The position numbers were made by a program, and so were the translations under genes. From the NCBI RefSeq assembly GCF_056712565.1, contig NZ_CM160072.1: a DNA stretch of 64,000 bases. One strand, written 5' to 3'. Position 1 is the first letter of the stretch; every line of letters begins with the position of its first letter. Positions 4,981 through 56,237 of the stretch are shown here, one piece after another. A model generated the notes under the pieces. The model was not told the origin of the DNA and searched no databases. It saw only the letters and a program-made list of their open reading frames with translations.

Positions 4981-5254
4981 AACGTGTTGCAATACCAGCG
5001 CCGGCATTGCGGAAATCAGCCCTGTCCCCGATGCTGGCGACACTCCCGCTCATCTTTCTGCTGACTCCTCTGGTCTGCCAACTGTTTGTCATCATTTCCT
5101 GACTGATTCGTCATTCCCTTCGTCCCGCCAGTCACTGGTGTTTGTATCGTACCGTCCGGTGTTGATGTGCGTTTTCCGTGTGTCTGCACCGGCTTAACAA
5201 AATTCAACAGGGTTTGAAAAGGAACATTTCGTGCAAATAACCGAAGCCTTAATT

Positions 5255-5590
5255 TCAGAGCCGGGAGACATCCGGCGTTTTGTTCAGCAGGCGCTGGAGT
5301 TCTTTAATCTGCTTCATGGCAGCAGCAAGTTCAGAGGCAGGAACGACCTGTTCTCCTGCGGCCACAGCAGTAAGACTTCCCTCCTGGTATTGCTTGCGCC
5401 AGAGAAATAACTGGCTGGCTGCCACACCGTGTTGCCGGGCAACAAGGGAGACCGTCATTCCCGGTTCAAAGCTCTGCTGAACAATAGCGATCTTTTCCTG
5501 TGTAGTACGCCGTCTGCGTTTCTCCGGTCCTAAGACATCAATCATCTGTTCTCCAATGACTGGTCTAAAAACTAGTATTAAGACTATCAC
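5255..5590 (-). mobile_element. IS66-family accessory protein TnpA (orfA) relic; rest of the IS is missing
   Basis: [44 protein letters not shown] matches the IS66 OrfA signature; no orfB/tnpC follows. Confidence 0.6.
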
Positions 5591-7881: not shown

Positions 7882-8183
7882 TTATGTAAGCGTTATTTAC
7901 TTAAGCGTGGATATATAAGAATGATATTATCAATATGTTGCTCATGAGTTTTTAATAGCATATAGGCTTGTTAACATAGCCCAGCAATATACTTTGCAGT
8001 GGGAGCAGGTATGCATACAGAACAGTGGGCGAGGACGAGCGTCCCTTTTCGAACAAGGTAGCAAAAGAGGAAGAAGAAAGACAAATACAACTGGGCCTGA
8101 AAGGGTAGTGTTTAAGCCCCCTTTCAGGGGGCCGTGTCAAAGCCGCCCGCTATGCAGATGGTTTTTTACTTTATCTGTTAAGC

Positions 8184-8219
8184 AAAAAAATGCCGCGATA
8201 AAGAAATTGTTACCGCGGC
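8184..8219 (-). terminator. Rho-independent terminator after the extended shell-protein gene
   Basis: On the minus strand GCCGCGG...CCGCGGC stem followed by a run of 7 T, ~20 nt past the stop at 8238. Confidence 0.5.
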
Positions 8220-8237
8220 AGCGTCATAGCAATTTAC

Positions 8238-8783
8238 TTATTTTTTCTTGCCGCTGGAACGAGGACCTTTCTTTGCTGCCTCCTGCGGTACATCAGATTT
8301 TGTAGGTTTAGTGTTTTCTATTGAGGGTTTAACTGGTTGATGCTGCTCCACGGACTTCAGCGTTTCATCAGTGACATCCATACAGGATGCGCTGATTGAC
8401 GTATCAAGGTTAACCACCGGGAATGTCTGTGAAGGCGCGTTTTCAGCCTGCAGTGTCGGTTGTGCAGCAGGCACTTCAGGTTGAGGTTCTGCGACGCCGG
8501 CGGTCACTTTAGAGTGAATAATCTGCTCGATATGCTGCGCGGTGCGGGCGATCACCTTATGGGCATACACCTCGCCAACCCGGCTTGCCGCGCTGATGGC
8601 TGCCGCTACCGCCGCGTTAATTGCGCCCACTTCCCCTTCCAGCTTCACGGTCACCATCCCGCCGCCTTTCGTCAATTCATAGCCTACCAGACTAACGTTA
8701 GCGGATTTCATTGCGGCATCGGCGGCTTCTACCGCCGCAGACATCCCGACGGTTTCGATTAAGCCTAAACTTTTCCCAGACAT
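8238..8783 (-). CDS. BMC-H microcompartment shell protein with a long Pro/Gln/Glu-rich C-terminal extension (PduK-like architecture)
   Basis: N-terminus MSGKSLGLIETVGMSAAVEAADAAMKSANVSLVGYE is a canonical BMC (PduA/EutM) domain; AGGAGA RBS before the ATG at 8783; ~90 aa tail follows. Confidence 0.8.
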   Translation of the reverse strand: MSGKSLGLIETVGMSAAVEAADAAMKSANVSLVGYELTKGGGMVTVKLEGEVGAINAAVAAAISAASRVGEVYAHKVIARTAQHIEQIIHSKVTAGVAEPQPEVPAAQPTLQAENAPSQTFPVVNLDTSISASCMDVTDETLKSVEQHQPVKPSIENTKPTKSDVPQEAAKKGPRSSGKKK

Positions 8784-8827
8784 AAATTTCTCCTGTAATA
8801 AATTCAACTGTGCTGCGCGTCGTCGGC

Positions 8828-9979
8828 TTAACGTCCAACGTCTTCGTATAATAGCGCCGCTTTGTCCGTAACTTCCCACGGAAAGCTGTCGCGACCAAAG
8901 TGACCATAGCAGGCTGTTTTACGATAGCGGGGGACCAGCAGATCAAGCGTAGTAATGATGCCGAACACGCTAAGATCGAAATGGCTGTTAACGCCTCTCA
9001 GCAACGCTTCAGATGACACTGTTTGTGTACCGAAGGTGTTAATCCTGACGGAAACAGGGCGGGGCAGGCCGATGGCCCATCCCAACTGGACTTCACAGCG
9101 TGAGGCAAGCCCAGCGGCGACGATGTTTTTCGCCACATAGCGAGCAGCGTAGGCGGCGGAACGATCGACTTTCGACGGATCTTTGCCTGAAAACGCGCCG
9201 CCGCCATGGCAAGCCGCGCCGCCATAGGTATCAACAATAATTTTACGCCCCGTTAGCCCGCAGTCACCCACCGGCCCGCCAATCACAAAACTGCCTGCAG
9301 GGTTCACCAGAAAGCGGGTTTGTGGTGTGAGCCAGTGCGAAGGCATCACAGGTTTAACAATTTCTTCGATGACCGCTTCCCGTAGCGCGTCCAGAGAAAC
9401 GTCAGGGCTGTGTTGGGTAGACACCACAACGGTATCTACTGAATGAACACGATTATCCTGATAGCGCAGGGTAACCTGGCTTTTGGCATCAGGGAGTAAA
9501 AATGGTAACCGTTGGGATTTACGCAACTGCGCCTGGCGCTCCATCAGACGATGGGCGTATACCAGCGTGGCGGGCATCAGTTCCGACGTTTCATCACAGG
9601 CGTAACCGAAGGTGATGCCCTGATCGCCCGCCCCCAGTTCTTCCATCGAGTGGCCGCGAATGCCTTCAGCAATATTGGCGGACTGTTTGCCAAGGATATT
9701 TAATACACAGCAGGTATTGCCATCAAACCCCAATCGCGAATGGTCGTAACCAATCTCTTTTATGGTGTTGCGGACAATCTTCTCAATATCCACGGCGGCA
9801 TGGGTAGATATTTCTCCGGCAACAATAGTGGCACCAGTTTTCACCAAGCATTCACAGGCAACCTTACCCCACGGGTCCTGTAGGAGTATCGCATCCAAAA
9901 TGGCATCAGAAATTTGGTCCGCCATTTTATCGGGATGCCCTTCGGCAACGGATTCGGAGGTAAACAGGTAATCGTTCAA
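8828..9979 (-). CDS. S-adenosylmethionine synthetase paralog (MetK-like), apparent TTG start
   Basis: Full-length collinear MetK signatures ([33 protein letters not shown]) but clearly diverged from housekeeping MetK and not in the metK genomic context. Confidence 0.85.
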
Positions 9980-9985
9980 AGCGAG

Positions 9986-10039
9986 CCCACTTGTTTGGGA
10001 AGTTTATTCCTATCTTAGGATAGGAACCTGACAAGTGGG
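9986..10039 (-). promoter_or_regulatory. Long hyphenated palindrome immediately 5' of the MetK-paralog start codon
   Basis: CCCACTTGT...ACAAGTGGG outer arms around a perfect inner inverted repeat TTCCTATC-TTAG-GATAGGAA; lies 7-60 nt upstream of the start. Confidence 0.35.
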
Positions 10040-10107
10040 CGTAAACTATCTTGCGGGCGTGTTGGACTATTTTGCTTTCATTATCGGGCCAATGCAAAAT
10101 CACGCCA

Positions 10108-11163
10108 TCACCGTGTAATTCCCGGGGACACGACTTTTCGATAATCAGAGGGGGTCATGCCAGTATCTTTTTTGAAGATGCGGCAAAAATAGTTTGAATC
10201 CTGGTATGCCAGTTCCAGCGCAATGGTATTTACTTGTAAGTCACTGAACCGCAATAACGATTTGGCGATAGTAATTTTACGCGTGGCAATATAGTTCGAA
10301 AACCCGAACCCGGTAATTTTCTTAAAGGTACGGCTCAAATAGCAGGCACTGACAAACGATTTTGCTGCCACGTCATCGAGCGTCAAGTTTCTGAGAATAT
10401 TTTTCTCAATATGGAATTTCGCTCGTTCGATAAAATCGATATTGCCTGTATAGCCTTTTAATGCGTAATCAAACAGCTCTTCGCTAATGGTCAGCAGGCT
10501 GATCATGATGCGGAAATAGCGGCTTTCCATCATGCCATACTGGTTGATGTCTTTGATCAGCGCGGCGACTTTACGGTTAGTCGGCATTAACTTTTCCCCT
10601 TTGGCGGTCATATACTGGCTAACTATTTCCAGAAAATCGATCACGTCTTTGCGCTTATCCTCTTCTATCATATCCACCGGACAGGCACCGTTGAGCGTGT
10701 CAAAAATAAAGTTGTGCCACTGGGTGTAATCGCAATCGTCTATCATGGCGAACACTTTCTGTTTTAGGGCGCGGGATTTTTCATTTTCTCCTTCGTCGAA
10801 TGCTAGGGTTTTTTTGATGGTGTCGGTCAAGATACATTTTTTCACTGGTTTGAGCAGATAATCATCCACTTTAAGGTTGTACATGCTGCGTACTATATCA
10901 AAGTCATCATTGGCCGTGATTACGATGATTTTAGTATCGCTGTTTTTTTTCTTCAGATATTCAATCACCTGTTTACCGTTCGGCAACGGAATATTAATGT
11001 CCACTAAGATCATATCGATTTGACTCAGTTGGTCAATTAAGTGAATCGCTTTTTTACCGGTTGAGGCTTCATGGATCGCAGCGTTTTCCACACACTGGGA
11101 GATAATCTGCCGCAGGGATTCTAATTCGATGGGCTCATCTTCAACGATAACAATGGTAAACAT
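10108..11163 (-). CDS. Two-component response regulator, receiver + AraC-type HTH output domain
   Basis: N-terminal receiver (IVEDEP..., DMILVDINIP, KIIVITAND) and C-terminal AraC HTH (SACYLSRTFKKITGFGFSNYIATRKI). Confidence 0.8.
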   Translation of the reverse strand: MFTIVIVEDEPIELESLRQIISQCVENAAIHEASTGKKAIHLIDQLSQIDMILVDINIPLPNGKQVIEYLKKKNSDTKIIVITANDDFDIVRSMYNLKVDDYLLKPVKKCILTDTIKKTLAFDEGENEKSRALKQKVFAMIDDCDYTQWHNFIFDTLNGACPVDMIEEDKRKDVIDFLEIVSQYMTAKGEKLMPTNRKVAALIKDINQYGMMESRYFRIMISLLTISEELFDYALKGYTGNIDFIERAKFHIEKNILRNLTLDDVAAKSFVSACYLSRTFKKITGFGFSNYIATRKITIAKSLLRFSDLQVNTIALELAYQDSNYFCRIFKKDTGMTPSDYRKVVSPGITR

Positions 11164-11179
11164 ATGTCCTTTTCCTGTA

Positions 11180-12442
11180 TCAGGCTTCCTGCATTGGGAA
11201 CCGAAGTTTAATGGTTGTACCCATCCTGGGTTTGTTAGGGCTCATTATTTCCAAGCCATAGCTCTCGCCAAATAACAACTTCAATCTATTTTTTATGTTG
11301 TTAATGCCAATACTGCCTTTTTGCAATTTTTGGTCGCCTGATAAAATGCGATTAATGGTATCTGGTGCGATGCCGTCGCCATTGTCAGTGACTTCAATAA
11401 TCACGTTCAGGCCATCGTCCGTGGCACGGATCAGCAGATGACTATTGCTATCCCTTGGCTCCACTACGTAGTTAAAGAAGTTTTCCACCAGCGGTTGCAG
11501 GATCAAAAACGGGCAGACTACATCCAGATATTTTTCCGGGATATCGCACAGGTAATCGAAACGGTCTCTCATACGCACTTTTTGGATCGACATATAGTTG
11601 TTGACGTAATTTATTTCATTACGCAGAGTAATCAGGCCGTGACTATTTTTACGTAACAAATAGCGCATCATGTCAGAGAAATCGTGCACCATTGTTTCGG
11701 TACGCTGCGCATCTTCAAGAAAAGCTAACCGGCCAATGGTATTTAATACGTTAAATAAAAAGTGTGGATTTATCTGATAAGAGAGCGCTTTAAATTCAGC
11801 TTCATGTAGTGAGCGTTCTATCTCTACACGTTTTCTTAACTCATTAGCCAGTGCAAGATCCTTTTTACGAAGTTCGCGTTGGATATTATTGGTGTGCGCT
11901 TGTTCGACCAGATAAGACGATACGTGTAGTAACGTCGAGGCAGTAGACTCAAAACGCTCATACGGCATGCGACGTGTATTCTGGTGCAAATTAATTAACC
12001 AAGGATTATCTTTCCAGACGTCATTATTATTCAGAATATAGGAAATGCTCTGTTCTTTCTCTTCTTCGACTTTTACCTGACCGGAAATAAAAGCACCGAG
12101 ATAATGATCGTTAATCATGATTGGGACAGCGAATTCGACAAAACCGCAGTGGCAGCGATAAACCACCGGTTTGCGAGCGTGCATCGCGGCACGGCCACCA
12201 GCGTTGTCGCTTTCATAACAGTGGTGCGCCAGTGTCGGGTTGAGACGCGAACGCATGCAGAAGTCTGAAAAACCGCTGGGCTTAGTGACCGGGATACCAT
12301 TCTCATCCACAACCACGAGCGCGATCATCATTGATTTTGAAAAGTTGTCCTGCAGGGTCTGAAGGCGTTTTACATCCAAAAACTCATTTAATTTGTATTT
12401 ATTCTTCATACTTTCAGCCTGCATTTTTAAAAACATAATCAT
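11180..12442 (-). CDS. Sensor histidine kinase with N-terminal PocR ligand-binding domain (LytS/YesM-type kinase core)
   Basis: PocR-like block (FSDFCMRSR...HHCYESD...[15 protein letters not shown]...GQV), then His-kinase region ([12 protein letters not shown]) and HATPase (DNGDGI...G.G). Confidence 0.8.
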
Positions 12443-12674
12443 ATATTTATAAATAATTTGTCGCGAAAAAATTGAAATGGATCACAGCAACAAAAACAGC
12501 TCCGGCTCTGAAAGTAATGCTTCGGTTATTTGCAAGGGATACTCCTTTTCAAACCTTGCTGAACCAGTGCAGATACACAGGGAAACGTATACCAGAACTG
12601 CCACAATACAAACGCCAGTTACTGGCGATACGAATGGAATGACGAGGCAGTCTGTCAGAAAGCCCCACATGAAC

Positions 12675-14515
12675 GATCACCACCTACATAGGAGGTGTTT
12701 TAAAATTGATCGAGTAGGAGGCGGGATCACTCCCGCCGTCCTCTCACACCACCGTACATGCGGCTCCGCATACGGCGGTTCATGTTAACACTGGAACTGC
12801 CTCTGCTGTTCCAGCAGTGATATCAGACCCTGCCTGCTGAACCACGCATTCTTTATCGCCTGATTCATATGGCTTGACTCTGAGTTCCACCATGGCCCGT
12901 GGTTGTTGTACGCTGAGATCATCGCCCTGTCCTTACTCAGTCCTGCTCTTTGCAGGTTCTTTGCCCGGGTTAGCGGTCTCTTCCACTGCCGCTACAACAA
13001 GCAACGCAGTTTCCGTTTGATCCAGCCATCCAGCTCCTCCAGCACTCCTCTGACCTCCGTCAGCCTGAAGTAGCTTATCCATCCACACAGCACTGGTGTC
13101 AGAGCATTGATTGTCGCTTTCACTGATTTGCTCCGGTTTCCCGTCGTCAGACTGTGGACTTTCTCCTTCAGCCTGTTCACGCTCGTCAGGGCTATCTTCA
13201 GCTTCGCCTGTTTGTGCCATGTCACACTGTACCCGAGGAACTTCCGATCCCACGGGCGCGCCACCGCGCTCTTCTTCTCATTCACCTTCAGTTTGTTCTC
13301 CACGAACGCCCTGATGTTCTTCAGCAGATGGTCGCCCGCTTTCCGGCTGCTTACGTAGATGTTGCAGTCGTCTGCGTAGCGGCAGAAGCTGTGTCCACGA
13401 CGCTCCAGTTCTTTATCCAGTTCATCCAGCAGGATGTTCGACAGTAACGGCGACAGTGGGCCGCCCTGCAGCATGCCCGCCTGCCGTTTCTCCCTTTGCC
13501 CGTCTTTAACCATTTCCGCTTTCAGGTAGCGGCGTATCAGTCACAGCACCCGCCTGTCCTTTATCGTTCTGGCCAGACGCGTCATCAGGAGTCTGTGATC
13601 CACCCGGTCGAAGAACTTCTCCAGATCCATATCCACCACCCACCGTTTGCCACCCCGTATGTAACGCTGTGCCTGTTGCACCGCCTGCTGGATAAGCCTG
13701 TCCACCACCGTCGGGATGCCTGAGGTTCTCACGCCGCCATCCGGCTTCGGGATATCCATCCGGCGTATTGTCCGCGGCTGGTAGTTTCCGTCAATCAATG
13801 CCTGCCTGACGCTGCGCCAGTTCTTCTTCAGCCACGGTTTCAACTCCGCCACGCTGAGGTTATCCACCCCCGCCGTGCCTTTGTTTTCCACCACGCGCTG
13901 ATAAGCCAGCATCAGGTTTTCTCTCGTTATCACCGCTTCCATCGTCAGCGGCACTTCCGCTTTCGTTTGCCCACCCGCCGCCGTGCTGATTTCAGCGCCA
14001 TCATGCAGCCCTGACGGATACTGTCCGTCTCCTCTGCCGCTGGTCGCAGTGGCCTGCGCTTGTGCTTCATTAATCATCATCGGGTTCGGATGTCCTAATC
14101 ACAGTTAATCATGTTCGGCCCTTCATGCTGCCGGTTTTGCAGCACTACTACGGCGTCGGCTGACTTCTGCCGCCCCATCCCGGCGCCTCACGGCGCCGGT
14201 AGCACACTGGCAGGGCGACAGATCTCCCGGGGTAATTCACGCGACTTTCCTGCTTATGCCTGTCGGCTTTACGTCACAGCGTTCCGTGTGAGTATCGGGC
14301 TTTGGTGATTAGTGCCACCTTACCCTGCTGCGCCGCCTTAACCGCTTCCTGTTCGTCAGGCCAGCATTTTGCATCCAGCTTCCTTCAGATTTCACCTCGC
14401 GATGAACACCCTTGCCTTCCGCTAACACTTCCCCTCACCGGGTGTGTGGAGGACTTTCACCTCTTAGTCGTTCTTCTGCCACCACAGTTGAAGAACAGCG
14501 CCAGTCACGGCGCAC
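12675..14515 (-). mobile_element. Group II intron (~1.8 kb) inserted just downstream of the microcompartment operon terminator; ends approximate
   Basis: Minus-strand GTGCG at 14515..14511 8-9 nt after the terminator T-tract; RT/maturase ORF inside; domain V-like hairpin at ~12745..12775 (CCGTATGCGG / CCGCATGTACGG with 2-nt bulge) and GNRA-capped helix after it. Confidence 0.65.
12784..14080 (-). pseudogene. Group II intron reverse transcriptase/maturase, disrupted by one frameshift (~13515-13540) and one in-frame TAG (12992-12994)
   Basis: RT blocks 0-2 in ORF 13541..14080 (AGVDNLSVAEL, IPKPDGGVRTSGIPTVVDRLIQQA, DMDLEKFFDRVDH); RT4-5 in ORF 12992..13513 (QGGPLSPLLSNILLD, FCRYADDCNIY); maturase tail continues in the same frame past the TAG (QWKRPLTRAKNL...LISLLEQQRQFQC). 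Confidence 0.7.
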
Positions 14516-14519
14516 ATAA

Positions 14520-14552
14520 CAAAAAGCCAGCAGGCAGACACTGCTGGCTTTT
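14520..14552 (-). terminator. Rho-independent terminator of the microcompartment structural operon
   Basis: GCCAGCAG-loop-CTGCTGGC stem followed by TTTTTGTT on the minus strand, 14 nt after the stop at 14566. Confidence 0.6.
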
Positions 14553-14565
14553 TGTTATGGCGGGA

Positions 14566-15471
14566 TTAAAACAGGGGAACCAAGGTAAATAATCCAATGG
14601 TCGCCAACAGATTAATCATCGTGGTCATAATGGTGATGACCATCGCCGGCGGGTCAATATGTGTATCGCCGTGGATCAGGAAGATACGCGACATCAGTTC
14701 ACCCAATATCGCGCAAATTATGCCAACGATAGCAGCCCAAATCAGGCTACCTGATGGCACCGCTACCAACGCGGCAGGCAGCGAAATATGATGTGACACC
14801 GGTACCTGAGTATTGAAATGCAGGAAAATCAGTGAGAACGCGGAAATACCAAACGCCAGCAGCGCGCCGTTGCCGCCAAACTTCAGGCCTAAAAAGCCTG
14901 CCATCAAGCCAATACCCAAGCCCAGCACGGAAAGCTGCGGAATGCGGCTATGGTAAGGTATCCAGCACTTATCCTGCGGCGGATAGCAGTGACGAATTCC
15001 CTGCTCCGGTTTTCCAAACAGGCCAGTTTTACCGAAAACCAGACGCGAGACCACGCCAGAAATCACCACGGTTAGTGCCACGGTATCGGTCCAAGCATTG
15101 CCGGACGGGAAGGCCGGAATCTGGTTCAACCCCCAGGCGATGATGTAACCAACCGCCCCAAAAACCCCGCCTACCAGCAGCACATCGTAAGCCGCCAGAC
15201 CGCTCAACCCGGCAGTGATATCACGCCCGGAACCCAGCTTGCCTTTCTTCGCTGCATACGCCGTCGCCGCAACCCCAGCGGCAAAGCCGCCGGTGTGCGG
15301 GCCAAACAGTCCAAACGGAAAAGTAATAAAGTCCGATGATGCTCCGGTAATAATTTGCACTACCGTCATGGCGATAACCAGAAGCCCAACGAATTCAAAC
15401 GCCGCCAGCGCGCCAACAGCCGCACCAAATATGCCGCCGCCGAAGGCAACTACAATATCTAAGCTATTCAT
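14566..15471 (-). CDS. Gly-rich polytopic membrane protein, last gene of the microcompartment operon; putative substrate/product facilitator of unknown family
   Basis: 301 aa with ~8 hydrophobic Gly/Ala-rich segments; no NPA (aquaporin) or obvious EutH/FocA signature. Confidence 0.5.
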   Translation of the reverse strand: MNSLDIVVAFGGGIFGAAVGALAAFEFVGLLVIAMTVVQIITGASSDFITFPFGLFGPHTGGFAAGVAATAYAAKKGKLGSGRDITAGLSGLAAYDVLLVGGVFGAVGYIIAWGLNQIPAFPSGNAWTDTVALTVVISGVVSRLVFGKTGLFGKPEQGIRHCYPPQDKCWIPYHSRIPQLSVLGLGIGLMAGFLGLKFGGNGALLAFGISAFSLIFLHFNTQVPVSHHISLPAALVAVPSGSLIWAAIVGIICAILGELMSRIFLIHGDTHIDPPAMVITIMTTMINLLATIGLFTLVPLF

Positions 15472-56161: not shown

Positions 56162-56237
56162 TGGTGCCCGGACTCGGAATCGAACCAAGGACACGGGGAT
56201 TTTCAATCCCCTGCTCTACCGACTGAGCTATCCGGGC
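56162..56237 (-). tRNA. pheU: tRNA-Phe (anticodon GAA)
   Basis: Reverse complement reads GCCCGGATAGCTCAGTCGGTAGAGCAGGGGATTGAAAATCCCCGTGTCCTTGGTTCGATTCCGAGTCCGGGCACCA; pheU rather than pheV inferred from the yjdC-dsbD-cutA-dcuA-aspA flank. Confidence 0.95.

Follow-up and report, generated by a model that had tools for sequence, protein, structure and literature searches.

Among characterised group II introns, the element treated here is close to the class C (IIC) introns B.h.I1 of Bacillus halodurans, O.i.I1 of Oceanobacillus iheyensis, GsI-IIC and E.r. IIC. These have in common a short domain V with a CGC triad, an AGGAA bulge, an EBS1-IBS1 pairing of 3-4 bp, the lack of an endonuclease domain and insertion after intrinsic terminators, and they are active ribozymes and retroelements. 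The RNA of a IIC intron, together with its own RT/maturase, recognises a terminator-like hairpin, an IBS1 of 3-4 nt and an IBS3 of 1 nt, after which the RNA inserts into DNA by reverse splicing and the RT copies it. Its position behind a terminator keeps such an intron almost untranscribed and harmless. The element described below presumably resembles O.i.I1 in its 5' end and domain V, and differs from all four of these introns in being a pseudogene with RNA lesions. Its family, E.c.I6, is also unlike them in that its 5' end has an additional 19-nt hairpin unit in tandem, which is prone to deletion. Toor et al. 2006 (PMC1702495) set out the features that distinguish class C, namely a shortened domain V with the CGC triad, the AGGAA bulge and a short EBS1, and also reported that IBS1-EBS1 pairing is essential for correct splicing of IIC introns.

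The intron E.c.I6 itself was described by Leclercq and Cordaux 2012 (PMC3522654) as a single-copy element of ORF class C with a disrupted ORF, located in a genomic island of Escherichia coli strains CFT073, ED1a, S88 and APEC O1. The intron present in the 64-kb stretch of DNA analysed here (the window) is this same, already known IIC relic: its length of 1807 nt, class, disrupted ORF and island location agree with the description, nothing essential differs, and it is an ordinary retroelement and not a new kind. The published S88 coordinates (NC_011742, 4641434-4643240) map exactly onto the intron of Table 1, the edges also agree with those published for APEC O1 and CFT073, and S88, APEC O1 and many other chromosomes match the region 12600-14620 with 100% identity. 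The window is DNA of an E. coli of the extraintestinal-pathogenic type. The island in question, grpA-grpS, encodes a glycyl-radical 1,2-propanediol microcompartment, and the intron lies between grpO and grpP, with all elements on the minus strand. What the present analysis adds to the earlier description are the exact lesions, a 19-nt deletion at the 5' end, a mismatch in EBS1, the population frequency and the link to intact plasmid relatives; the practical value of this is limited. It is very likely that E.c.I6 retro-inserted sense-wise downstream of the grpO terminator in the E. coli grp island and subsequently decayed to an immobile relic.

Table 1 Features of the intron, its coding sequence and its flanks in the window
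Feature	Position	Strand	Details and basis
grpO (permease), last gene of the structural grp block	14566..15471	-	stop 14568-14566; ORF list and RefSeq annotation of identical S88 DNA
Intrinsic terminator hairpin of grpO	14516..14558	-	folding, inverted repeat I2, conserved in Atlantibacter locus L004
IBS1, last 4 nt of 5' exon (UUAU)	14516..14519	-	position relative to GUGCG; IBS1/EBS1 covariation
Group IIC intron E.c.I6 relic	12709..14515	-	1807 nt, GUGCG to ...CUCGAU; Rfam, plasmid-copy alignment, published coordinates
19-nt deletion site	14507..14513	-	canonical 5' end GTGCGCCG[GGCATGGCGCGTAGCGCCG]TGAC, one of two tandem 19-nt units lost; 11-copy alignment
Domain I core (RF02001)	14237..14406	-	139.7 bits, E 8e-29, full model length
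Terminal loop of domain ID arm, GCACUAAU	14308..14315	-	EBS1 = ACUA 14313-14310; covariation with 5' exon
Domains II-III region (RF01998)	14118..14202	-	73.8 bits, full model length
RT/maturase pseudogene	12785..14080	-	one reading frame; intact homologue 462 aa; translation compared with intact ltrA
87-bp in-frame deletion junction	~13682..13690	-	GCAGGCG microhomologies; alignment A1 columns 924-1010
In-frame TGA	13541..13543	-	AGA in L002, ATA in L003
6-bp in-frame deletion site	~13289..13296	-	one AAACTG repeat unit; alignment A1 columns 1405-1410
In-frame TAG	12992..12994	-	TGG in intact copies; inside maturase (X) domain
Domains V + VI (RF00029)	12709..12780	-	48.5 bits; domain V ~12778-12749; domain VI bulged A ~12715
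3' flank, non-homologous to grp loci of other genera	12501..12708	-	208 nt; Atlantibacter homology resumes only at 12500
grpP (sensor kinase), first gene of the grpPQRS block	11180..12442	-	start 12442; block inverted in E. coli as compared to other genera

Regarding the boundaries, homology to copies in unrelated plasmid contexts, as defined by alignment with pO86A1 and an E. fergusonii LT plasmid, starts at GTGCG (14515-14511) and stops at CTCGAT (12709). These ends (5' GUGCG, 3' ...GAU) conform to the group II motifs 5' GUGYG and 3' AY. Three Rfam covariance models (RF02001, RF01998 and RF00029) match over their full length with scores at or above the gathering score, all in sense orientation with respect to grpO and the other grp genes. 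A first reading of the DNA from sequence only had proposed a group II intron on the minus strand and a covariance-model search for domains V and VI; the former is confirmed by these matches and the latter located both domains, although the lower bound then given (12675) overshoots the 3' end by 34 nt. The Rfam search of the 64-kb window returned no second copy of the intron.

The assignment to class C is well supported by features of both the RNA and the protein. Domain V carries the CGC triad, reading CCGCCGUAU where the Rfam consensus has GAGCCGUAU, with CCGCC in place of GAGCC, and in the Rfam alignment it is 4 nt shorter in the upper helix and loop. The AGGAA bulge is found at 14384-14380 within AAUCUGAAGGAAG, aligned to the unpaired positions 17-27 of model RF02001, which corresponds to the 11-nt bulge of IIC introns. 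The Rfam structure further has a single long ID arm with one terminal loop, and a hairpin in the RF01998 region shows a compensatory change from G-C to A-U between copies. For the protein, grouping with class C RTs was judged from the E-values of PDB matches. The best match of the intact 462-aa protein of the plasmid copies is the GsI-IIC RT (6ar1; E 3e-139), followed by the protein of the E. rectale IIC RNP (7uim; E 7e-106), whereas the values are 4e-43 for the IIA protein LtrA, 4e-33 for a IIB RT and 1e-5 to 1e-9 for retron RTs, which are remote PDB matches. Pfam recognises RVT_1 and GIIM only in the intact homologue, and no endonuclease domain was found with it. A retron or other RT class as the source of the RT-like ORFs had been named as one case that would overturn the intron assignment. 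The rival in which the ORFs are of retron, DRT or Abi-type and the RNA matches are coincidental is refuted, its chance being negligible: three full-length group II covariance matches flank the ORF, the GIIM maturase domain is present, and in the PDB search group IIC RTs come first, ahead of retron RTs by about 100 orders of magnitude.

Both the orientation and the position of the intron are those of a IIC element, namely in sense and within 3-11 nt after the stem of a terminator or stem-loop. The grpO hairpin has a core stem 14548-14541 / 14533-14526 with a 7-nt loop, followed by a T5 run at 14525-14521, and it extends to a perfect stem of 18 bp over 14558-14516, with the sequence AUAACAAAAAGCCAGCAG-7nt-CUGCUGGCUUUUUGUUAU. 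It folds with -26.6 kcal/mol (z = -9.5), and none of 200 shuffled sequences (0/200) folds as well. The strong terminator postulated immediately upstream of the intron is thus real, as is the insertion of a class C intron behind it, given the hairpin, the IIC-type RT and the IIC features of the RNA. The proposed distance of 8-9 nt from the T-tract requires adjustment: it is 5 nt from the T5 run to the intron start, and 10 nt from the G+C core stem. A terminator scan missed the main grpO hairpin, probably because its stem runs through the T-run; folding confirmed the structure. A hairpin with a T-run also precedes most of the related intron copies examined.

The gene for the RT/maturase is decayed beyond use. 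The sequence-only reading had proposed an ORF with all RT blocks, broken by a frameshift near 13515-13540 and by an in-frame TAG. A frameshift can be ruled out, since all pieces of the ORF, including 14080-13541 and 13513-12992, are in the same reading frame, and the break is an in-frame TGA (13543-13541). Not all RT blocks are present either: 29 aa are lost through an 87-bp deletion, among them the SYGF(R/Q)PGR portion of RT block 2. All non-grp copies examined that span the position have these 87 bp, including L002, L003, L032, L034, L036 and L037 (numbers with the prefix L denote related loci). The TAG is there as proposed, and the maturase tail behind it stays in frame up to a TAA at 12787-12785. 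In addition, the PQGG motif of RT4 contains a missense mutation (CCG to CTG, Pro to Leu, at 13470), and a 6-bp in-frame deletion accompanies the two nonsense codons and the 87-bp deletion, so that the earlier view of a decayed and probably immobile element stands. Active introns have an uninterrupted ORF with all RT blocks, which the window copy lacks. With its protein gene in this state, the copy can neither mobilise itself nor supply its own maturase, and we infer that it cannot move. The two genes between grpO and grpP that RefSeq annotates as "maturase / reverse transcriptase domain" should be corrected to fragments of one pseudogene inside a catalogued intron.

Many independent assemblies, S88, APEC O1, CFT073 and SCEC020007 among them, have exactly these lesions, which are hence not read errors. 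Since CFT073 and SCEC020007 carry all of the ORF lesions, inactivation predates the split of the island lineages. The ORF has 28 substitutions that are specific to the lineage at the grp locus; 15 of the 28 are at codon positions 1-2 and all codon positions are hit, a spread that is consistent with relaxed constraint.

Intact members of the E.c.I6 family are known from plasmids, such as pO86A1 (NC_008460) and p18B233LT3 of E. fergusonii. Their identity to the window copy is 94-97% across the entire intron, the ribozyme domains are the same, and they too follow motifs consisting of a hairpin plus a T-run. Unlike the window copy, they possess a complete RT/maturase of 462 aa and mostly both 19-nt units, and in several of them EBS1 matches the 5' exon of the copy itself. 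Next to the grp genes, about 530 of 5,426 complete E. coli genomes (~10%) have the intron: all genomes with the grp flanks have them split by it, as judged from 540 records at least 99% identical to intron plus flanks and 535 records at least 99% identical to the flank queries, with the full 3' flank in 525 genomes. When the same 5,426 genomes were searched with the joined flanks for a place covering at least 80% of the query, no empty site was found (0/5,426). The predicted 30-mer of the empty site was absent from metagenome contigs as an exact match, in a scan that had no positive control. The median copy number of E.c.I6 is one per genome having any.

The RNA is damaged as well, by the loss of one 19-nt unit and by a defect in EBS1. 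Most copies, including distant ones on IncP and IncC plasmids, begin with GTGCGCCGGGCATGGCGCGTA-GCGCCGTGACTGGCGCTGT, i.e. two tandem units of 19 nt, and this canonical 5' end is seen in L002, L032, L034 and L037-L040. Deletions equivalent to that of the window copy occur in L033 and L036, and a 17-nt version is present in L003 / pO86A1. Loci L036 and L037 represent one and the same insertion, with the 19-nt deletion in L036 and lacking it in L037, and the region of the tandem units is a hot spot for slippage. Copies with intact ORFs (L003, L036) carry the 17- or 19-nt deletion, which suggests that it may be tolerated. The basal helix CCGGG/CCCGG covaries in L040 (CCAGG/CCTGG), and one of its pairs would be mismatched in the window copy.

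A second lesion concerns exon recognition. Covariation of loop positions 3-6 with the last 4 nt of the 5' exon places EBS1 in the terminal loop of the long ID arm (GC-NNNN-AU). Complete pairing (4/4) is found in L033 (EBS1 ATAC, exon GTAT), L036-38 (ACAA, TTGT) and L040 (CAAA, TTTG), and three of the four pairs form in L002 and L034 (ATAC, with exons TTAT / CTAT) and in L039 (CATT, TATG). The family as a whole thus shows a short EBS1-IBS1 pairing of 3-4 bp, whereas the window copy, with ACUA opposite UUAU, forms only 2/4 pairs, with mismatches at -2 and -3. Position T14311 is an A in SCEC020007 and in the closest plasmid copies, where EBS1 reads ACAA and would form 3/4 pairs with UUAU; the T is therefore a later, derived mutation. 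As an alternative EBS1, the AUAA in GGCAUAAGCAGG was considered, since it could form all four pairs with UUAU. It was rejected because it is a bulge of a basal stem in the Rfam structure and is invariant, in contrast to the loop at the end of the ID arm, which covaries with the exons.

The mismatch in EBS1 and the deletion at the 5' end lead to the expectation that the window copy probably splices poorly or not at all. On the other hand, the Rfam scores of its ribozyme are not lower than those of intact copies, and the 511 nt of ribozyme contain only 4 of the 32 substitutions specific to the lineage, as compared to 28 in the 1296 nt of ORF. Some residual catalytic competence may therefore remain. 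It could thus be proposed that the ribozyme is still functional and that an intact copy of the E.c.I6 family, residing on a plasmid of the F-, I- or HI1B-type, supplies the maturase in trans, so that the intron splices from read-through transcripts and is perhaps even mobilised. Besides the undiminished scores, such a role is favoured by the frequent occurrence of the 94-97% identical intact copies on plasmids of E. coli and E. fergusonii, and by the absence of window-specific substitutions in domains V and VI (0). We consider it unlikely, since only two of the four EBS1-IBS1 pairs can form where pairing is reported to be essential for correct IIC splicing (PMC1702495), 19 nt are missing at the 5' end, and a genome with any E.c.I6 has a median of one copy. 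Moreover, an intron situated behind a terminator of -26.6 kcal/mol will give rise to little precursor RNA. Efficient splicing of this copy would be improbable even with a maturase acting in trans.

The neutral, immobile fossil of a retroelement is the best-supported reading. The RNA of the intron would have inserted in sense orientation just 3' of the intrinsic terminator of grpO; later, the copy would have acquired the nonsense codons and missense changes, and lost RT block 2, the 6 bp, the 19 nt at its 5' end and the match of EBS1. The relic would then have been inherited passively with the island, because excision at the DNA level does not occur. As such it illustrates cleanly the extinction phase of class C introns, in a copy that a virulence-associated island carries along.

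Comparison with other genera does not support the view that the intron now separates the microcompartment structural operon from its regulatory genes, as the first reading had suggested. Relatives of GrpO were found in 28 species-representative genomes, and the intron is absent from all 28. For orientation, enterobacterial loci were compared that have grpP inside the 5 kb fetched downstream of grpO. In Atlantibacter, Silvania, Citrobacter freundii, Serratia, Symbiopectobacterium, Superficieibacter and Mixta, grpPQRS is on the opposite strand and convergent with grpO, and the convergent grpO and grpS share the same hairpin as a bidirectional terminator. Since the terminator is present in these intron-free loci, with grpPQRS convergent there, the intron has split no contiguous operon. 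The grpO terminator is ancestral, and the collinear grpO-grpP layout is, judged from these loci, a derived rearrangement of E. coli. Homology with Atlantibacter stops at window position 14518-14516, the 5' junction of the intron, and resumes in inverted orientation from 12500 to 8159, which places one inversion breakpoint within about 3 nt of the junction.

The intron might mark the rearrangement by which the grp island of E. coli became unique, or even have had a part in it; we regard this as quite unlikely. If the collinear layout were the work of the intron or of recombination between copies, terminator read-through together with splicing, or its failure, could couple the regulators to the structural operon or insulate them from it. 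An inversion by recombination between two inverted intron copies was considered and rejected, as no second intron or remnant was found at the other junction near 8159 or elsewhere in the window. Arrival of the intron after the E. coli grp rearrangement is the simplest reading. In E. coli, an intron-free version of neither the collinear nor the convergent arrangement was seen, and the 3' exon of the intron is foreign DNA of the island-repeat type: the segment 12658-12502 is a dispersed repeat of E. coli islands that occurs in 3,492 of the 5,426 genomes, near island genes of the UCP030791 type. The rearranged grpO-grpP junction of uropathogenic E. coli, different from that of other Enterobacterales, matters for mapping the promoters of GrpP/GrpQ, the two-component system that governs propanediol use and type 1 fimbriae.

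The relic might have been co-opted, either as a spacer or insulator or by providing grpPQ with an outward promoter, which would explain its retention in every grp-positive E. coli. It is indeed at the site in all of the approximately 530 genomes, with no empty allele, and the native AT-rich region that precedes grpP in Atlantibacter has been replaced in E. coli, beginning 58 nt ahead of the ATG. Outward promoters reportedly occur in a sub-lineage of IIC introns, the IIC-attC introns. Nevertheless, co-option is highly improbable: retention is the default for an element unable to excise from DNA, the lesions and the clustered divergence look neutral, a consensus scan of the minus strand detected no sigma-70-like promoter in the 3' part of the intron or in the 3' flank, and between the intron and grpP, at 12627-12613, the terminator scan gave a second terminator-like hairpin. 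In strain O15_8X the intron is present in an internally deleted and inverted version, and the locus has apparently been kept. The fossil intron probably has no role in grp expression. Strain CFT073 carries the same relic, and in this strain GrpP and GrpQ are co-transcribed, expressed and functional (PMC11724981).

In the grp island, which carries propanediol microcompartment genes, the orientation of grpPQRS (window 8159-12500) is flipped in E. coli as compared to the other enterobacterial genera (L004-L009, L012-L018), the comparison being made over enterobacterial grp loci in which grpP lies inside the fetched flank. In these other genera, grpPQRS is convergent with the permease gene grpO, and a bidirectional terminator is common to both. 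One breakpoint of the inversion is situated about 3 nt or less from the 5' junction of the group II intron E.c.I6, and the other 58 nt upstream of the ATG of grpP, the sensor kinase gene. Due to the position of the latter, a long AT-rich upstream region that is present in Atlantibacter was lost in E. coli.

The intron also varies among strains that carry the island. Between two grp-island lineages, 14-16 positions differ (window vs CFT073 and SCEC020007), and 10 of these are bunched in the last 166 nt (window 12758-12923), including the loop and the bulge of domain V, the latter being AU in the window copy and AC in CFT073. All lineage differences in CFT073 are located inside the intron, with none in about 700 nt of flanks. 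This clustering, together with the unchanged CFT073 flanks, suggests a gene-conversion tract that would have originated from another intron copy. In strain O15_8X (NZ_CM182542.1, 4330-5013) the intron is further rearranged: the equivalent of window 14081-13344 is deleted and that of 13343-12660 is inverted, leaving a grpO-grpP spacer of just 1378 nt. The rearrangement may reflect genuine additional decay of the intron, or it may be an artefact of the assembly.

The E.c.I6 family (L002, L032, L034, L037-L040) has two tandem 19-nt hairpin units directly 3' of GUGCG. One unit was lost several times independently, by deletion of 19 or 17 nt (window 14507-14513, L003, L033, L036), and L036 and L037 are otherwise identical insertions, yet differ by such a loss. 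The first hairpin of the intron itself, followed by UGUUCUUC, is terminator-like by score (14513-14498). EBS1, the loop that pairs with the last 4 nt of the 5' exon (IBS1), is ACAA in L003 (plasmid pO86A1; ORF intact) and in the 3'-truncated plasmid copy L032, and does not match their own 5' exons (CATT, ATAT). This mismatch suggests that these copies inserted ectopically under relaxed IBS1 pairing or drifted afterwards.

In the RefSeq annotation of L001, CFT073 and SCEC020007, 12992-14080 is not marked as a single pseudogene within the intron; the pieces of the pseudogene are entered as two ordinary protein-coding genes, variously named "maturase", "reverse transcriptase family protein", "hypothetical protein" or "reverse transcriptase domain-containing protein".

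Between the intron and grpP, window 12502-12658 is a dispersed repeat of about 150 nt, carried by 3,492 of 5,426 E. coli genomes at up to six places per genome, in association with UCP030791-family genes of CP4-like islands. A diverged inverted copy occurs near window 5101-5264 (L001 23357-23520).

Additional features of the window
Feature	Position	Strand	Remark
Terminator-like hairpin	12627-12613		Inside dispersed repeat
Unannotated 62-aa ORF	12482-12670	minus	Overlapped by dispersed repeat
tRNA gene	56165-56237	minus	Rfam 68.3 bits

The island may have integrated at this tRNA gene.
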